A stretch of DNA of 29,415 nucleotides from positions 1-29,415 of the forward strand of contig JAYEGB010000054.1 in NCBI GenBank assembly GCA_034658875.1, read 5' to 3'. Position 1 is the first letter of the stretch. Each line of letters opens with the position of its first letter. A program made the position numbers and the translations under genes. Positions 138 to 23,813 of this stretch are shown in pieces. Origin of the DNA: Patescibacteria group bacterium. GTDB lineage: Bacteria > Patescibacteriota > Kazan-3B-28 > UBA10110. Under the pieces are notes generated by a model. That model was not told where the DNA came from. It worked only from the letters and a program-made list of their open reading frames with translations, and searched no databases.

Positions 138-752
138 CTAATTCTCTACTGCAACCAAGAAACTTTCAATATATTTAGTAGCATCTCCCCAAGAATAAGC
201 TCTTTTTACATTTTCTGTCTCCTGTATTTCTTTGTTCCAAGGTTTGTCGAGAATAATAACCTTAATATTATTTTCAACTAAAGCCTCTATGTGCTGTGGG
301 TTGTCATCAACAATAACCCCGCACCCTATATTTTTACAAATCTCCCCCTTACTTAACCCTGACGCACCGTCGATAGGATAATGATTACCGAACAAAATGC
401 CTTTAAATAATCCCGCAAAATTTCTACTAATCCAATCATGAGTTTTTTCTTGAACAACATTTTGTCTGGCAGTCACTAAATATAAATCATGCTGTTTAGA
501 CAAATTTTCTACCCACTCTTTGGCACCACTTGATACTGGCAAATCATTGAATTGGTTCGTTCTAAAAAATTCGTGGACAGCCTCAATCGCTTCTTCGTCA
601 CTTACATCCATCCAATTTGACCAGTGGTAATCTTTAAAATCATTAAAATCATAGTTTGTTCCAAGTTTTATGTTGTACCACTTCAAAAATTCCGCTACGA
701 AACTAGACAAAACATCGTCTAGGTCTATGGCAATTTTTACTCGATTTTGCAT
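138..752 (-). CDS. HAD-superfamily 5'(3')-deoxyribonucleotidase (NT5C-like)
   Basis: Motif I IAIDLDDVL, motif II VTAR, motif IV IVDDNP, C-terminal KPWN. Start moved from 827 to ATG 752 because the longer ORF runs through a terminator, and TATAAT lies 6 nt before ATG 752. Confidence 0.85.
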   Translation of the reverse strand: MQNRVKIAIDLDDVLSSFVAEFLKWYNIKLGTNYDFNDFKDYHWSNWMDVSDEEAIEAVHEFFRTNQFNDLPVSSGAKEWVENLSKQHDLYLVTARQNVVQEKTHDWISRNFAGLFKGILFGNHYPIDGASGLSKGEICKNIGCGVIVDDNPQHIEALVENNIKVIILDKPWNKEIQETENVKRAYSWGDATKYIESFLVAVEN

Positions 753-770
753 GCCTTCATTATAAACAAT

Positions 771-800
771 AAAAAAAAGCCCACGGGATTCCGTGGGCTT
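771..800 (-). terminator. Intrinsic terminator of the 820..1161 gene
   Basis: 10-bp stem AAGCCCACGG-AATC-CCGTGGGCTT followed by a U-tract on the minus strand. Confidence 0.85.
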
Positions 801-819
801 GCGGGGCACAAACCTAACT

Positions 820-1161
820 TCAGCCAATTCTCCGTAATTTAGGCTTTACGGCATCCGAAGCTTCGGAAATCTGTTTGGCGATTTCAGAACAAAGCCGGAA
901 GGCAATAAATCTTATTAAAAATTTATTGTTGCCCGGAGATTCTTGGTGACACTCTCGTACCAATCGAGCTAATCCAGGATTAGTATTTTCGAGACGCCTC
1001 TTTAGAGCTGTTAGCTCGCTATTCGAGAAAGATCTTATTAACTCCCCAACATCTTCTTCGGTAGATTCTCCATTAGAAATTTTGTCTAACGGTATTTGGG
1101 GAATATTTGATAGAATTTCGAGAGCTTTTTCCACTCTCGGATTTGGTAAACGAATACTCAT
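820..1161 (-). CDS. Hypothetical protein, 113 aa
   Basis: Strong SD AAGGAGG upstream, own promoter and terminator; no family recognised. Confidence 0.7.
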   Translation of the reverse strand: MSIRLPNPRVEKALEILSNIPQIPLDKISNGESTEEDVGELIRSFSNSELTALKRRLENTNPGLARLVRECHQESPGNNKFLIRFIAFRLCSEIAKQISEASDAVKPKLRRIG

Positions 1162-1205
1162 ACTTTATAAGTCTCCTCCTTAAAGGTGCATTTTCACAGG
1201 ATTAT

Positions 1206-1235
1206 ATAATAAACAACAATTACAACAAATGTCAA
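1206..1235 (-). promoter_or_regulatory. Sigma70-type promoter for 820..1161
   Basis: TTGACA-18 nt-TATTAT on the minus strand. Confidence 0.55.
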
Positions 1236-1256
1236 TAGTATTTGTATGTATTACTA

Positions 1257-1281
1257 AAACGGCTCATCAAATGAGCCGTTT
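1257..1281. repeat. AACGGCTCA palindrome, copy 1
   Basis: AAACGGCTCAT-CAA-ATGAGCCGTTT; may double as terminator of 1304..1567. Confidence 0.85.
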
Positions 1282-1303
1282 ATTTTTGGATTATTTACTT
1301 GAT

Positions 1304-1567
1304 TTACAGAGGCAACTCACCCACATCAACAAGATCTAGATCTTCAGTTAAACCCTCTAGATCTAAGACCGTATCATCAATTGCACTATCGGCCTCAGTT
1401 TCGGTGACAACTGGTTCGTCAGTAGTTGTTTCATCCGTCACTTCCTCAGAGACTACTTCTTCATTGGTTGGCAATAAATTTTCTGTGGTGCTTATATTAT
1501 TAGCTACCCAAACCACCGCCAAAACCAGGATTACGAGTAAAAATATAGTGTAGAACATGTTTTTCAT
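1304..1567 (-). CDS. Small membrane-anchored acidic protein, 87 aa
   Basis: N-terminal hydrophobic helix then an E/D/T-rich region; TATAAT upstream. Confidence 0.75.
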   Translation of the reverse strand: MKNMFYTIFLLVILVLAVVWVANNISTTENLLPTNEEVVSEEVTDETTTDEPVVTETEADSAIDDTVLDLEGLTEDLDLVDVGELPL

Positions 1568-1621
1568 AGCAATTCATCTTAACAATAAGCCAAATATCAC
1601 CTTAATTATACCTTAAACCCG

Positions 1622-1644
1622 AACGGCTCATAAATGAGCCGTTT
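1622..1644. repeat. AACGGCTCA palindrome, copy 2
   Basis: AACGGCTCAT-AA-ATGAGCCGTTT, between divergent genes. Confidence 0.85.
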
Positions 1645-1689
1645 GAAAAAAAGACCATTTACACCTATCATATTGAGGTAAGAAAGCCT

Positions 1690-1779
1690 GGAGAGGTCGC
1701 ATAGTGGCCTAGTGCGCTCGCTTGGAAAGCGAGTATACCCGCAAGGGTATCGCGGGTTCGAATCCCGCCCTCTCCGCCA
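1690..1779 (+). tRNA. tRNA-Ser(GGA)
   Basis: Acceptor stem GGAGAGG/CCTCTCC, anticodon arm CTCGC-TTGGAAA-GCGAG, long variable arm, TTCGAAT T-loop, encoded CCA. Confidence 0.98.
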
Positions 1780-1978
1780 CAAAACAGATAAGCTCTTTAG
1801 AAATTGTCTGTTTTGTATTGTGTGCTAGGTGGGGTTCGAGCCCGGGAAAGGGGTCGGGAAAACGGTAGTTTTCCTGTGGTGGAAACAGCTTTTATGTCGC
1901 AGATTAAAAGCGTTAAAACCGCAAGGTTTTAAGGAGAAACTTTAGTGACGACGGTTTGTATTCCCGCCCTCTCCGCCA
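1780..1978 (+). mobile_element. 199-bp non-coding structured element ending in a 17-bp repeat of the tRNA-Ser 3' end (att-like, non-autonomous)
   Basis: TCCCGCCCTCTCCGCCA at 1763-1779 and 1962-1978; four internal hairpins; no ORF. Mobility is inferred, not shown. Confidence 0.6.
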
Positions 1979-2016
1979 GTTGGCGGATGCCGGGACAAAT
2001 GGTAGCGAAAGAAATT

Positions 2017-2046
2017 CTGGATCCCTGGGTCAAGCCCGGGGATGAC
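2017..2046. repeat. GTCAT/ATGAC-tagged REP-like palindrome, single arm
   Basis: CTGGATCCCTGGGTCAAGCCCGGGGATGAC, resembling the CTGGAT-hairpin-ATGAC arm of CGTC/GTCAT-tagged bacterial repeats. Confidence 0.7.
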
Positions 2047-2075
2047 AAAGAAATACGAGAATGATAGGTATGGGA

Positions 2076-2104
2076 TTGACTAAAAACAGAATATCTCCTA
2101 TACT
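2076..2104 (+). promoter_or_regulatory. Sigma70 promoter of the rpsF operon
   Basis: TTGACT-17 nt-TATACT. Confidence 0.8.
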
Positions 2105-2124
2105 CACCTTACATTATTAACTAA

Positions 2125-2164
2125 CCTTTTCCCCCGAAAAATCGGGGTTCCCCATGGGAAAGGA
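2125..2164 (+). promoter_or_regulatory. Candidate S6:S18 autoregulatory leader
   Basis: Hairpin CCCCG-AAAAAT-CGGGG on a lower stem that includes the SD-like GGAAAGG, with a 3'-side bulge containing CCCC. Confidence 0.55.
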
Positions 2165-2176
2165 AATTTTTTTACT

Positions 2177-2728
2177 ATGGAAGACAACTACACAAACACC
2201 TATGAGCTCACCTTGCTATTTTCTCCAGATTTATCTGAAATCGATCTGGCAAAAGCAATAGATAAGGTGAAAAAAAGCATCTCCTCTAAAGAAGGAGATA
2301 TCAAGAAAGAACACAGCTGGGGCAAGAAAAAGCTTGCCTACCGTATAAAGAAACTGGAGTTTGGTAATTACCACACTCTTGTGTATACAATGCCGAAAGA
2401 AAGTGTAAATGAGATAATCAGAGAGCTAGAGCTCTCCTCAGATGTTCTGCGCCACATGAACCTCTCTCTTGAAAAAGAAGGTATTACAATTGACGATCTC
2501 TTCACCCCAGAAAAAGAAACAGCTATGATTGCGGCTTCAGTTAAAGAAAAGATGGATCCTAAAACTGCTACTGTCAAAAAAGAAGGGAAGAAAGTTACAG
2601 AAAAGCCAAAAACCGAAGAAAAAAAGATAGAAGAACCAAAGGAAAAACTTTCCCCAGAAGAACAAGAAAAACGTCGCAAAGAATTAGACGAAAAATTAAG
2701 TGAATTATTAGAAGATAAAGAAGAATAG
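2177..2728 (+). CDS. rpsF: 30S ribosomal protein S6 with charged C-terminal extension
   Basis: YELTLLF, WGKKKLAYRIKK, VLRH motifs; rpsF-ssb-rpsR synteny. Confidence 0.97.
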   Translation: MEDNYTNTYELTLLFSPDLSEIDLAKAIDKVKKSISSKEGDIKKEHSWGKKKLAYRIKKLEFGNYHTLVYTMPKESVNEIIRELELSSDVLRHMNLSLEKEGITIDDLFTPEKETAMIAASVKEKMDPKTATVKKEGKKVTEKPKTEEKKIEEPKEKLSPEEQEKRRKELDEKLSELLEDKEE

Positions 2729-2763
2729 AGAAATAAAAACTCTATTAAATAATAGAAAACATC

Positions 2764-3243
2764 ATGCGCGACTTAAATAAAGCAATGGTTATTGGTAATA
2801 TGACTCGCGATCCAGAAATTCGTCAGATTCCTTCTGGACAAAGCGTAGCTTCATTTGCCGTTGCTACTAATCGTAGTTGGAACGATGCTTCCGGAGAGCT
2901 CCAGAAGGCCGTTGAATACACCGAAGTAGTAGCTTGGGGAAAATTAGCAGAAATCGCTGGCCAAATATTAAAAAAAGGCCGTAGGGTTTATGTAGAAGGC
3001 CGTCTCCAAACTCGCAACTGGGAAGGCCAAGATGGCGTTAAGCGCTATCGCACCGAGGTAATTGCTTCCGATCTTATTGTGTTGGACCGCCCACCAAACA
3101 TTGGCTTTAATGGAAACAACGAAACAACCACAAAAGCAACTTCCATGCCGCAAACCCAAGCCCAACCAGTTACTCCAGCCGCTTCCCCAGCTCCTAAAAC
3201 CAATACTCCAGAAGAAATAGATATAGAAGATATTCCATTTTAA
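2764..3243 (+). CDS. ssb: Single-stranded DNA-binding protein
   Basis: LNKAMVIGN..RDPE, VYVEGRLQTR, C-terminal DIPF. Confidence 0.98.
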   Translation: MRDLNKAMVIGNMTRDPEIRQIPSGQSVASFAVATNRSWNDASGELQKAVEYTEVVAWGKLAEIAGQILKKGRRVYVEGRLQTRNWEGQDGVKRYRTEVIASDLIVLDRPPNIGFNGNNETTTKATSMPQTQAQPVTPAASPAPKTNTPEEIDIEDIPF

Positions 3244-23276: not shown

Positions 23277-23300
23277 AACGGCTCACGCAATGAGCCGTTT
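23277..23300. repeat. AACGGCTCA palindrome, copy 3
   Basis: CCCG-AACGGCTCA-CGCAA-TGAGCCGTTT-AAAAA, between divergent leuS and tRNA-Ala. Confidence 0.85.
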
Positions 23301-23353
23301 AAAAACAGCTTGAGCTCCATTAATTCTCTTTGTTATTTTCAACCCTTCCTTCT

Positions 23354-23469
23354 GTCATTCTCGATCGACTTGCCCTGTGGGCAAAGTTCGGGTCGGGAAT
23401 CCAGAAAACAACATACTGTGGATCCCCAATCCGAATTTCATCCGACAGGATGAATCGGTTGAGGATAAC
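23354..23469. repeat. Bipartite GTCAT-tagged REP/MITE-like element
   Basis: Left arm GTCATTCTCGA..CGGGAATCCAG, short spacer, right arm TGGATCCCCAA..TTGAGGATAAC; each arm is extended by an inner hairpin. Confidence 0.7.
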
Positions 23470-23492
23470 GAGTGAAGAAATAATCCTATCCG

Positions 23493-23520
23493 ATGAGCCG
23501 TTTAAAAAAACAGTGTTGAG
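23493..23520. repeat. Half copy of the AACGGCTCA palindrome with duplicated flank
   Basis: ATGAGCCGTTTAAAAAAACAGTGTTGAG matches 23290-23315 ATGAGCCGTTTAAAAACAGCTTGAG. Confidence 0.75.
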
Positions 23521-23636: not shown

Positions 23637-23813
23637 CGTCATAACGAATTTCACTTCATCATTTTTGTGCATACACAAAAATTCATACCGTTACATCATT
23701 ACTCCCCGTCTGCTGGCAGGCAGGTTTTTCAAACAAAATCTGAAAAATTTAATGGAAAATACTCGGCTCTCCGCCAGCCAGCGAACAAACCGTTTAGTTG
23801 GTAAGATATATAC

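Follow-up and report, generated by a model that had tools for sequence, protein, structure and literature searches.

An apparently undescribed family of small, protein-less, probably mobile elements with site-matching arms at gene ends in Patescibacteria

The DNA between positions 1780 and 1978 of the window (the whole 29,415 bp stretch of a Patescibacteria group bacterium genome analysed here), which lies directly behind a tRNA-Ser gene, is probably a reduced copy of a small protein-less mobile element whose family extends across the Patescibacteria and whose insertion site (called T below) appears to be chosen by base pairing with a short arm of the element. The family is apparently undescribed, tiny, free of protein genes, mobile and widespread in bacteria of the candidate phyla radiation. 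When the window copy and three canonical copies were searched against Rfam 15 by cmscan with permissive filters (E up to 10 or 1), the only hits were to tRNA or due to chance, no family came at or near its gathering threshold for the element, and no description of it was found in the openly accessible literature that was searched (subscription-only literature lay outside the search). Given these two results, the element is rated here as a new kind of system, in agreement with a first-pass annotation of the window that had named this locus as a candidate for one.

Members of the family follow a common plan: the end of a host gene is succeeded by a short leader, a 12–18 nt arm that is the reverse complement of T, a hairpin junction, and a sense copy of the sequence from T to the gene end. 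The 3′ end of the core abuts T, and there are two copies of the stretch that begins at T and finishes just beyond the nearest gene end; because of this duplication the host gene upstream of the element is complete. The elements are ∼110–220 nt long and their cores ∼75–130 nt. The core comprises a joiner (GGAAAGGGGU), hairpin PA, a purine-rich joiner, hairpin PC, the optional hairpins PB and PD, and a closing ...CGAC, and the smallest members have a 75–80 nt core made up of joiner, PA, joiner, PC and the closing ...CGAC. Truncated and tandem copies exist. No element copy with an open reading frame was seen at any of the ∼250 loci listed; the more distant repeats at three of these loci are tandem or partial duplicates, and one 153 amino acid open reading frame there has no meaningful Pfam match. 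The reading of the element as the decayed end of a larger island was rejected on the same grounds, that intact copies are all ∼110–220 nt long and that none of the ∼250 loci listed carries an open reading frame.

The genome that contains the window (G000) is 641 kb in 84 contigs and 96.6% complete. All features of the window copy lie on the plus strand. The host gene is an intact tRNA-Ser(GGA) with an encoded CCA (1690–1779; called by ARAGORN, and 58.1 bits with the Rfam tRNA model). Upstream of it a consensus match to a promoter (TTGAAA, 17 nt, TATCAT; 1643–1671) is the sole promoter-like candidate that could drive tRNA-Ser and, by read-through, the element; a consensus scan found no such site between the two. 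The tRNA gene ends with the proximal copy of the duplicated segment (1753–1779; direct repeat D1, placed by alignment of proximal and distal copies), which contains T (the T-arm), the 3′ strand of the acceptor stem and CCA, and which belongs to the working tRNA. Behind it come the leader (1780–1827), composed of an A-rich/U-rich hairpin (1779–1816; inverted repeat I2) and a G/T-rich linker, and the arm or “guide” (1828–1844), which is the reverse complement of tRNA positions ∼51–67 and pairs with 1753–1769 at 17 of 17 positions. The core then runs through an invariant purine-rich joiner, GGAAAGGGGT (1845–1854; invariant columns in alignments A1 and A2), which lies within an exact 19-mer found across the Patescibacteria; hairpin PA with a 9 bp stem and a GGTA loop (1855–1876); a second conserved joiner, TGGTGGAAACA (1877–1887; alignment A2); the variable hairpin PB (1888–1911), which is optional in the family and is absent from other copies or replaced there by other perfect hairpins or larger inserts; hairpin PC with an 8 bp stem and a GCAA loop (1913–1932); and a 3′ joiner that ends in GACGA (1933–1951; alignments A1 and A2). 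Hairpin PD is missing at this point. The distal copy of the tRNA 3′ end (1952–1978; direct repeat and alignment) closes the element; its final 17 nt equal those of the tRNA and its T-loop part is altered. As RNA, 1780–1978 has a folding energy of −69.4 kcal/mol, against −52.5 ± 4.1 kcal/mol for shuffled sequences (z = −4.1).

The local features that the first-pass annotation had pointed out are largely as it described them. The 17 bp direct repeat (1763–1779 and 1962–1978) is identical at 17 of 17 positions and can be extended to a 27 nt repeat with 85% identity (1753–1779 and 1952–1978). The four hairpins are present at 1779–1816 (18 nt arms, 83%), 1857–1874 (the longer form being 1855–1876), 1888–1911 and 1913–1932 (GCAA loop), and 1828–1843 pairs with 1754–1769 at 16 of 16 positions with exactly three G-U pairs, to which 1844:1753 adds a seventeenth position. 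Two other features required revision. The T-loop of the distal copy is indeed altered, but its sequence, GGTTTGTAT, is not a simple decay product of the tRNA-Ser T-loop, since the same string ends the copy on contig C49 and a T-loop interruption between tRNA positions 56 and 57 is a trait of the element family. Likewise, the TGGCGGA that was thought to cap the distal TCCGCCA is present at 1981–1987, but it belongs to a separate small palindromic repeat, copies of which are also found at C16:8781 and C51:7070. This repeat family lies after the element at 1971–2048 and consists of a 16 nt palindrome (TCCGCCAGTTGGCGGA) and a hairpin-forming stretch; it has further copies at C31:13918 and C11:58, and the palindrome alone is inserted in two element copies, those on C49 and behind tRNA-Arg(TCT) on C20. 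Another palindrome, AACGGCTCAT..ATGAGCCGTT, is present at 1622–1643 and 23277–23298 of the window and on many other contigs, often at positions where a terminator is expected, and one of its copies is accompanied by a ∼200 bp unit (23290–23520) that has a 25 bp flanking repeat and a core unlike that of the element.

The plus-strand neighbours downstream of the window copy are rpsF-ssb-rpsR-efp-ychF, and those on the minus strand are a gene for an NT5C-like nucleotidase and two small open reading frames of no assigned function. None of these neighbours is a recombinase gene. Gene order around tRNA-Ser(GGA) is not conserved in the taxonomic family, and no orthologous empty site for this tRNA was found among its genomes, so there is no direct pair of empty and filled sites at the window locus. 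The sole DNA run that contains the window, taken to be its likely source sample, gave contigs in which the element has the same depth as its flanks and in which no empty-site joint at this locus was present. None of the RNA runs searched contains the element.

A profile made from five copies found seven in the window's own genome. Five lie behind the genes for tRNA-Ser(GGA), -Lys(TTT), -Glu(TTC), -Glu(CTC) and -Arg(ACG), a truncated one lies behind tRNA-Arg(TCT), and the seventh, on C49, is behind a degenerate tRNA-like 3′ end. The closest relative of the window copy is that of tRNA-Lys(TTT) on C20 (86–90% identity). Neither of these two has hairpin PD, which most relatives have, and from their sequences both are reduced variants. 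When the sequences downstream of all 47 tRNA genes of this genome were compared, a hairpin leader, an antisense T-arm, the core and a sense 3′ end were seen at the element-bearing loci; a copy of the tRNA's own last 16 nt is present within 450 nt downstream of 6 of the 47 tRNA genes and upstream of none.

Several other inserts in this genome and its relatives have parts of the same organization. A second, unrelated core with the same plan is present behind tRNA-Val(GAC) (C6:18730–18960, where two units are in tandem), behind tRNA-Leu(AAG) on C82, and at loci L035 and L037; it starts with GGTTCGACAAGCTCACC and ends with an inverted copy of it, which is followed by a copy of the tRNA 3′ end. Relatives of this second core behind tRNA-Ser in genomes G001 and G002 have a short anti-T segment as well. 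Several element families thus seem to share the insertion strategy. The element core is absent from a 46 nt insert behind tRNA-Cys that ends in a copy of the tRNA-Cys 3′ end (C82:5844–5889) and from a duplicated 3′ half of tRNA-Lys(CTT) behind that gene (C20:3604–3700). A ∼100 nt trailer that starts with CGTCG... or CGTCA... directly follows the CCA of at least 12 tRNA genes of this genome, for example tRNA-Ala(GGC) in the window (23637–23730), and is also found after distal tRNA-end copies. Contig C35 has eight tRNA genes in 2.4 kb (711–3093), mostly with no encoded CCA, unlike the rest of the genome; this cluster is possibly phage-derived or otherwise foreign DNA.

The core is carried by 10 of 13 genomes of the same taxonomic family. 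A 17 nt core pattern has 35 matches in three genera of that family, the reversed pattern has none, and no match was found in the sister taxonomic family. Beyond these groups, at least 120 stretches of GTDB species genomes contain the exact 19 nt core word, as do at least 120 metagenome contigs, and almost all of the stretches listed are from named Patescibacteria groups (Paceibacteria, Parcubacteria groups, Berkelbacteria and “Saccharibacteria”); copies gathered by an exact 19-mer are a sample biased to one subfamily. The 19-mer has no match in viral contigs. The first-pass annotation had proposed a search for homologues behind other tRNA genes whose anti-T-arm segment and distal repeat change with the host tRNA. 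There are many, and both segments do co-vary with it.

This co-variation was measured on 34 non-redundant copies, 30 of which lie behind an ARAGORN-called tRNA gene (19 tRNA identities). Reverse-complemented arms of these 30 copies, locally aligned with tRNA 3′ regions, score a mean of 24.9 with the cognate tRNA, 17.0 with other tRNAs and 12.7 in the sense-orientation control. Permuted arm assignments never reached the observed value, either with all copies (z = 11.8; 0 of 20,000) or with one copy per tRNA identity (z = 9.1; 0 of 20,000). Where a tRNA has an unusual T-loop (GGTGC, AGTTC), arm and distal copy both reflect it: with GGTGC the arm reads GCACC and the distal copy GGTGC, and a tRNA-Gln with the T-stem CATAG has a perfect 17 nt arm and AGTT in its distal copy. 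The distal copy thus starts near tRNA position 50–51. In most tRNA copies a small hairpin or a few bases break its T-loop between positions 56 and 57; the 26 nt repeat of one tRNA-Asp copy is uninterrupted, and in one tRNA-Ile copy the repeat extends 8–11 nt beyond CCA. A flanking direct repeat is present in 91 of the 137 copies listed that have enough flank (reversed control, 1) and in 62 of the 97 listed in the metagenome set (reversed control, 3). Among the 91 its median length is 27 nt and its range 14–94 nt, with lengths of 14–100 nt over both sets, and in ∼85 of the 91 repeat-bearing copies listed the complement of the arm starts within −6 to +2 nt of the start of the repeat. Near-identical leaders are found behind different tRNA genes in different genomes (tRNA-Met in G009 and tRNA-Lys in G012), which indicates that the leader travels with the element.

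The first-pass annotation had proposed a minimal non-autonomous element that targets tRNA genes. This idea is supported but is too narrow, because the ends of protein genes also carry the element with arms that match those genes. Among the matches listed, 74 of 123 copies in species genomes and 57 of 97 in metagenomes (34 anticodons) are behind a tRNA gene; tRNA T-arms make up ∼60% of the sites, and protein genes about a third. The protein-gene hosts are rpsI, fusA, a typA-like gene, dinB and uvrB, and the element can be in either orientation in them. At rpsI the site is the 3′ end with the stop codon, with a 23 nt perfect repeat and a 12 nt arm. The sites in fusA and the typA-like GTPase gene are at the 5′ ends on the opposite strand, where T lies in the stretch that encodes AH(V/I)D.GKT; that in dinB is at the 5′ end, and that in uvrB is in the C-terminal part. 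Several unrelated A+T-rich sites are also occupied, with a matching arm at each, and a few copies lie directly upstream of a tRNA gene whose 5′ end is T, where no duplication is needed. About half of the protein-gene copies are antisense to the host operon and have no evident promoter there, and the downstream genes differ at every element locus compared. Copies of the core from several Paceibacteria (L089, L091, L103, L111, L123, L153, L179, L186 and L191) lie within arrays of GGAGG/CCTCC-rich hairpins (GTCCTCC...GGAGGAC); T is G-rich in these copies and is partnered upstream by a hairpin that contains CTCCC.

The proximal gene copy is complete at the tRNA, rpsI, fusA, typA-like and dinB sites. 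In the uvrB copy (L182) the upstream repeat copy stops short of the native stop codon; the open frame continues into the element for another 31 codons, and the native C-terminus is encoded behind the distal copy. Either a UvrB protein with a changed tail is made or the element is removed from the RNA at this locus.

Support for the folded core comes from 20 full-length copies, on which the constant part of the arm:site helix, PA, PC and PD were tested. In these four helices 94.9% of cells are paired (86.8% after shuffling), both sides have changed at 14 of 28 pairs (shuffled mean 6.0), and the covariation score is 0.26 (0.11 after shuffling); in none of these three measures did any of 500 shuffles score as high. 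When helix partners were slid by 1–3 columns, 28–60% of cells were paired. PA is paired in 100% of cells and has an A-U to G-C double change in 10 of the 20 copies, and PC is paired in 93% of cells with double changes at four of its eight pairs. The fourth base of the 1877–1887 joiner correlates with the PC loop, a correlation limited to three states that may reflect lineage. The core helices contain 12 G-U pairs against zero A-C mismatches, a bias that indicates that it is the element's own strand that folds. No such bias is seen in the arm:site helix (31 G-U against 46 A-C mismatches across copies), and the earlier suggestion that the G-U wobbles of the window copy favour pairing as RNA therefore does not generalize.

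Comparison of related genomes gives empty and filled sites at two loci, and the distribution of the element among relatives is patchy. The fusA site is filled in G026, with a repeat that is identical at 66 of 66 positions, and the rpsG-fusA junction is empty in G031, G032 and G035. At this same fusA 5′ site, locus L211 (G038) has a different insert of ∼100 nt that does not have the conserved core and has its own gene-start repeat of ∼60 nt. At tRNA-Arg(ACG), G005 has an empty site, three species of another genus have a filled one (truncated in one of them), and the window's own genome has a copy of a different subfamily. Read in the true frames, diverged repeat copies at protein genes differ at 12 codons synonymously and at 2 non-synonymously; the wrong frames give 11 and 83. 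Such mostly synonymous differences imply that both copies of the repeat evolved as coding sequence, and hence that one of them came from another genome; this pattern fits a cassette that was transferred whole, gene end included, and then recombined into an empty allele. Long repeats that are perfect (up to 66 nt) are what movement within a population, or duplication where the element inserts, would give, and the two modes, import and insertion-site duplication, may coexist. Point mutation alone seems too slow as a source of arms for many unrelated sites.

The way in which such an element might insert can be outlined from these features. Pairing between the arm and T would close off the core as a three- or four-way junction; the strand involved would be that of the element itself, either as RNA or as single-stranded DNA, and the pairing would place the 3′ end of the element at the 5′ edge of T and in this way choose the insertion point. 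The duplicated gene end would keep essential genes intact and would also be a second stretch of homology through which the whole cassette could recombine into empty alleles of the same gene in other genomes. Recombination of this kind would explain the synonymous bias of the differences between repeat copies. We infer that the folded strand is RNA, an interpretation that is weakened by the many copies antisense to the host operon: these have no evident promoter, so that a mechanism requiring expression in place loses ground and one using single-stranded DNA may apply. The catalyst could be the RNA itself, a protein supplied in trans, or host recombination after DNA uptake. A bolder proposal, which should be considered tentative and rather unlikely, is that the 75–130 nt core is itself the machine or its sole specific part, a small ribozyme or guide scaffold that uses its freely exchangeable 12–18 nt arm to join its 3′ end to nucleic acid directly 5′ of the complementary site.

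The search for a partner enzyme gave no gene that tracks with the element. Reverse transcriptases of 350–400 amino acids are common throughout the order and do not track with it; they are present in 18 of 26 genomes, including the element-free taxonomic family, and missing in three carriers. The window's own genome has two reverse transcriptase genes on short contigs, C50 (2257 bp) and C63 (1825 bp); the latter is of the group II intron type (RVT_1 and GIIM domains), and C50 is probably foreign, its G+C content being well above that of the genome. Neither TnpB nor an IS110-type DEDD recombinase (PF01548) was found in this genome, and control genomes do respond to the latter profile. Cas1 was not found. 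The genome has one Xer-like tyrosine recombinase gene, on C7.

Of the rival explanations, the one that survives best holds that the element is the remnant of a single-stranded-DNA transposon, a palindrome-associated or REPIN-type element moved by a Y1 HUH transposase, in which the hairpins and the arm:site pairing form in DNA. It seems improbable. The element's orientation is independent of host-gene transcription and its arm:site helix has no wobble bias, both of which this explanation accommodates. The window's own genome also has a Y1 transposase gene (C38:269–631), and the ends of IS200/IS605 elements locate the sites where they are cleaved through base pairs with a short guide inside the element. 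Against this, the Y1 gene does not track with the element, being absent from the nearly complete carriers G008 (99%), G001 (97%) and G011 (96%) and present in the element-free G005 and G013. IS200/IS605 elements have 4–5 nt guides and make no target duplication, unlike the 12–18 nt arms and 14–100 nt repeats seen here. The GNRA-type loops and the 12 G-U pairs against no A-C mismatches in the core fit a folded plus strand, either RNA or single-stranded DNA.

A miniature integrative element, whose flanking repeats would be attL and attR made by a tyrosine or serine recombinase acting in trans on an attP that carries a gene end, is less probable still and may be called quite unlikely. A duplicated gene end with a decaying displaced copy is the classical signature of integration and is what is observed, and the mostly synonymous repeat differences fit an element-borne gene end. 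However, the genome's one Xer-like recombinase gene is near no copy of the element, and a sequence-specific recombinase would not allow a single core to have dozens of unrelated sites. An inverted arm 80–130 nt away from T has no role in an att site, and the length of the repeat varies from 14 to 100 nt.

Least probable of the three, and very unlikely, is a host regulatory RNA, a folded 3′ trailer acting on tRNA maturation, on termination or on the expression of downstream genes. The window copy is probably co-transcribed with tRNA-Ser, there being no promoter between them, and its arm could unfold the T-arm with 17 base pairs; the contig depth indicates that essentially all cells of the source population carry the element, and the tRNA-Arg copy persists in three species of one genus. 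On the other hand, the same core occupies the ends of rpsI, fusA, typA-like, dinB and uvrB genes as well as unrelated sites, and does so in both orientations; truncation is common among the copies, relatives carry the element only patchily, and different genes lie downstream at every locus. The occurrence of protein-gene copies in either orientation, and the number of truncated ones, leave a tRNA-maturation switch unsupported, and with it the first-pass suggestion of a cis-acting RNA that refolds the pre-tRNA to control its maturation. Readings as a tmRNA, an RNase P-like RNA (a type A RNase P RNA is encoded on C6 of the same genome), a T-box, a retron or a diversity-generating retroelement were dropped.

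If the preferred reading, a non-autonomous mobile element that finds its site by arm:T pairing, is correct, these sequences represent a new kind of mobile element that has no genes and has a site-matching arm that differs between copies, and that spares essential genes by duplicating a gene end instead of by splicing. It is abundant in the Patescibacteria, whose genomes are otherwise very lean. It would also account for many isolated tRNA 3′ fragments in Patescibacteria assemblies, for many short pseudo-ends of conserved genes there, and for assembly breaks at such sites; in the source sample the contig graph breaks at the repeat. A small folded core whose exchangeable arm determines the insertion point is a possible programmable tool, and should the core prove to be the machine, it would be a minimal programmable insertion system native to the smallest bacterial genomes. 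Movement of gene-less elements in reduced genomes becomes testable with an RNA of ∼100 nt and an oligonucleotide.

By analogy with known systems, the element would work most like a homing intron and would leave a footprint most like that of the integrase elements that carry a gene end, and the defining features of both classes were sought in it without success. As in group I and group II introns, a short arm beside a conserved folded core pairs with host sequence at the junction, the sites are often in the most conserved parts of essential genes (those for tRNAs, translation GTPases and ribosomal proteins), the distribution is patchy and horizontal, and flanking host sequence seems to move along, as in co-conversion. 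In contrast to these introns, the core is only ∼75–130 nt long, has no match to any Rfam intron model and is accompanied by no intron-encoded protein; the host gene is kept whole by end duplication and not by splicing, and the arm pairs 3′ of the element, not with a 5′ exon. A group I intron was rejected as the proximal gene is complete at tRNA, rpsI, fusA, typA-like and dinB sites and its native end is missing upstream only in uvrB (L182), the only copy that might need splicing. The P3–P9 core of group I was not recognized by the Rfam Intron_gpI model in the window copy or the three canonical copies; the string GGGAAAGGGGUC may resemble the P4-J4/5-P5 string of the Tetrahymena intron. A group II intron, with six domains, at least 600 nt and usually an open reading frame for a reverse transcriptase/maturase, was rejected for an element of 110–220 nt with no open reading frame, the genome's group II reverse transcriptase being on C63.

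The tyrosine integrase prophages and islands that insert in tRNA genes or icd likewise leave the gene complete, with the displaced copy of its end at the far side, and they too favour tRNA 3′ ends from the T-loop onward. The element differs from them in being shorter than 220 nt, in having no integrase, in the use of one core at dozens of sites, and in its inverted complementary arm. The insert is flanked by a gene-end direct repeat, as attL and attR would be, and no recombinase is present in the element or tracks with it. A classical MITE or insertion sequence, which has terminal inverted repeats and a fixed 2–14 bp duplication, was rejected, as the inverted repeat here is host sequence that changes with the site and the duplications are 14–100 nt long. 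A retron was rejected too, as no reverse transcriptase gene lies directly downstream (the genes there being rpsF-ssb-rpsR-efp-ychF) and the downstream genes vary at other loci.

Systems that are guided by RNA offer other parallels. In the OMEGA guide RNAs of IS200/IS605 TnpB and of IscB, a folded scaffold is joined directly to host sequence at the border of the element, so that a read-through transcript would consist of scaffold and target sequence, and non-autonomous copies exist. Here no TnpB was found and the Y1 transposase does not track with the element, and OMEGA and IS200/IS605 elements, unlike this one, have neither a long target duplication nor an inverted copy of the target. The bridge RNA of IS110/IS1111 elements is similarly a non-coding RNA of ∼150–200 nt that sets the target by base pairing; no DEDD recombinase was found to go with the present element, which does not have the two-loop architecture and which alone of the two has a long duplication. 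The remaining comparison is with target-primed reverse transcription (R2, LINE/SINE and linear group II introns), a class that is not known in bacteria except for group II introns. The presence of a reverse transcriptase does not track with the element. The points of likeness are a precise 3′ and a variable 5′ junction, long target duplications that vary in length, short non-autonomous partners, and host sequence at the end of the RNA.
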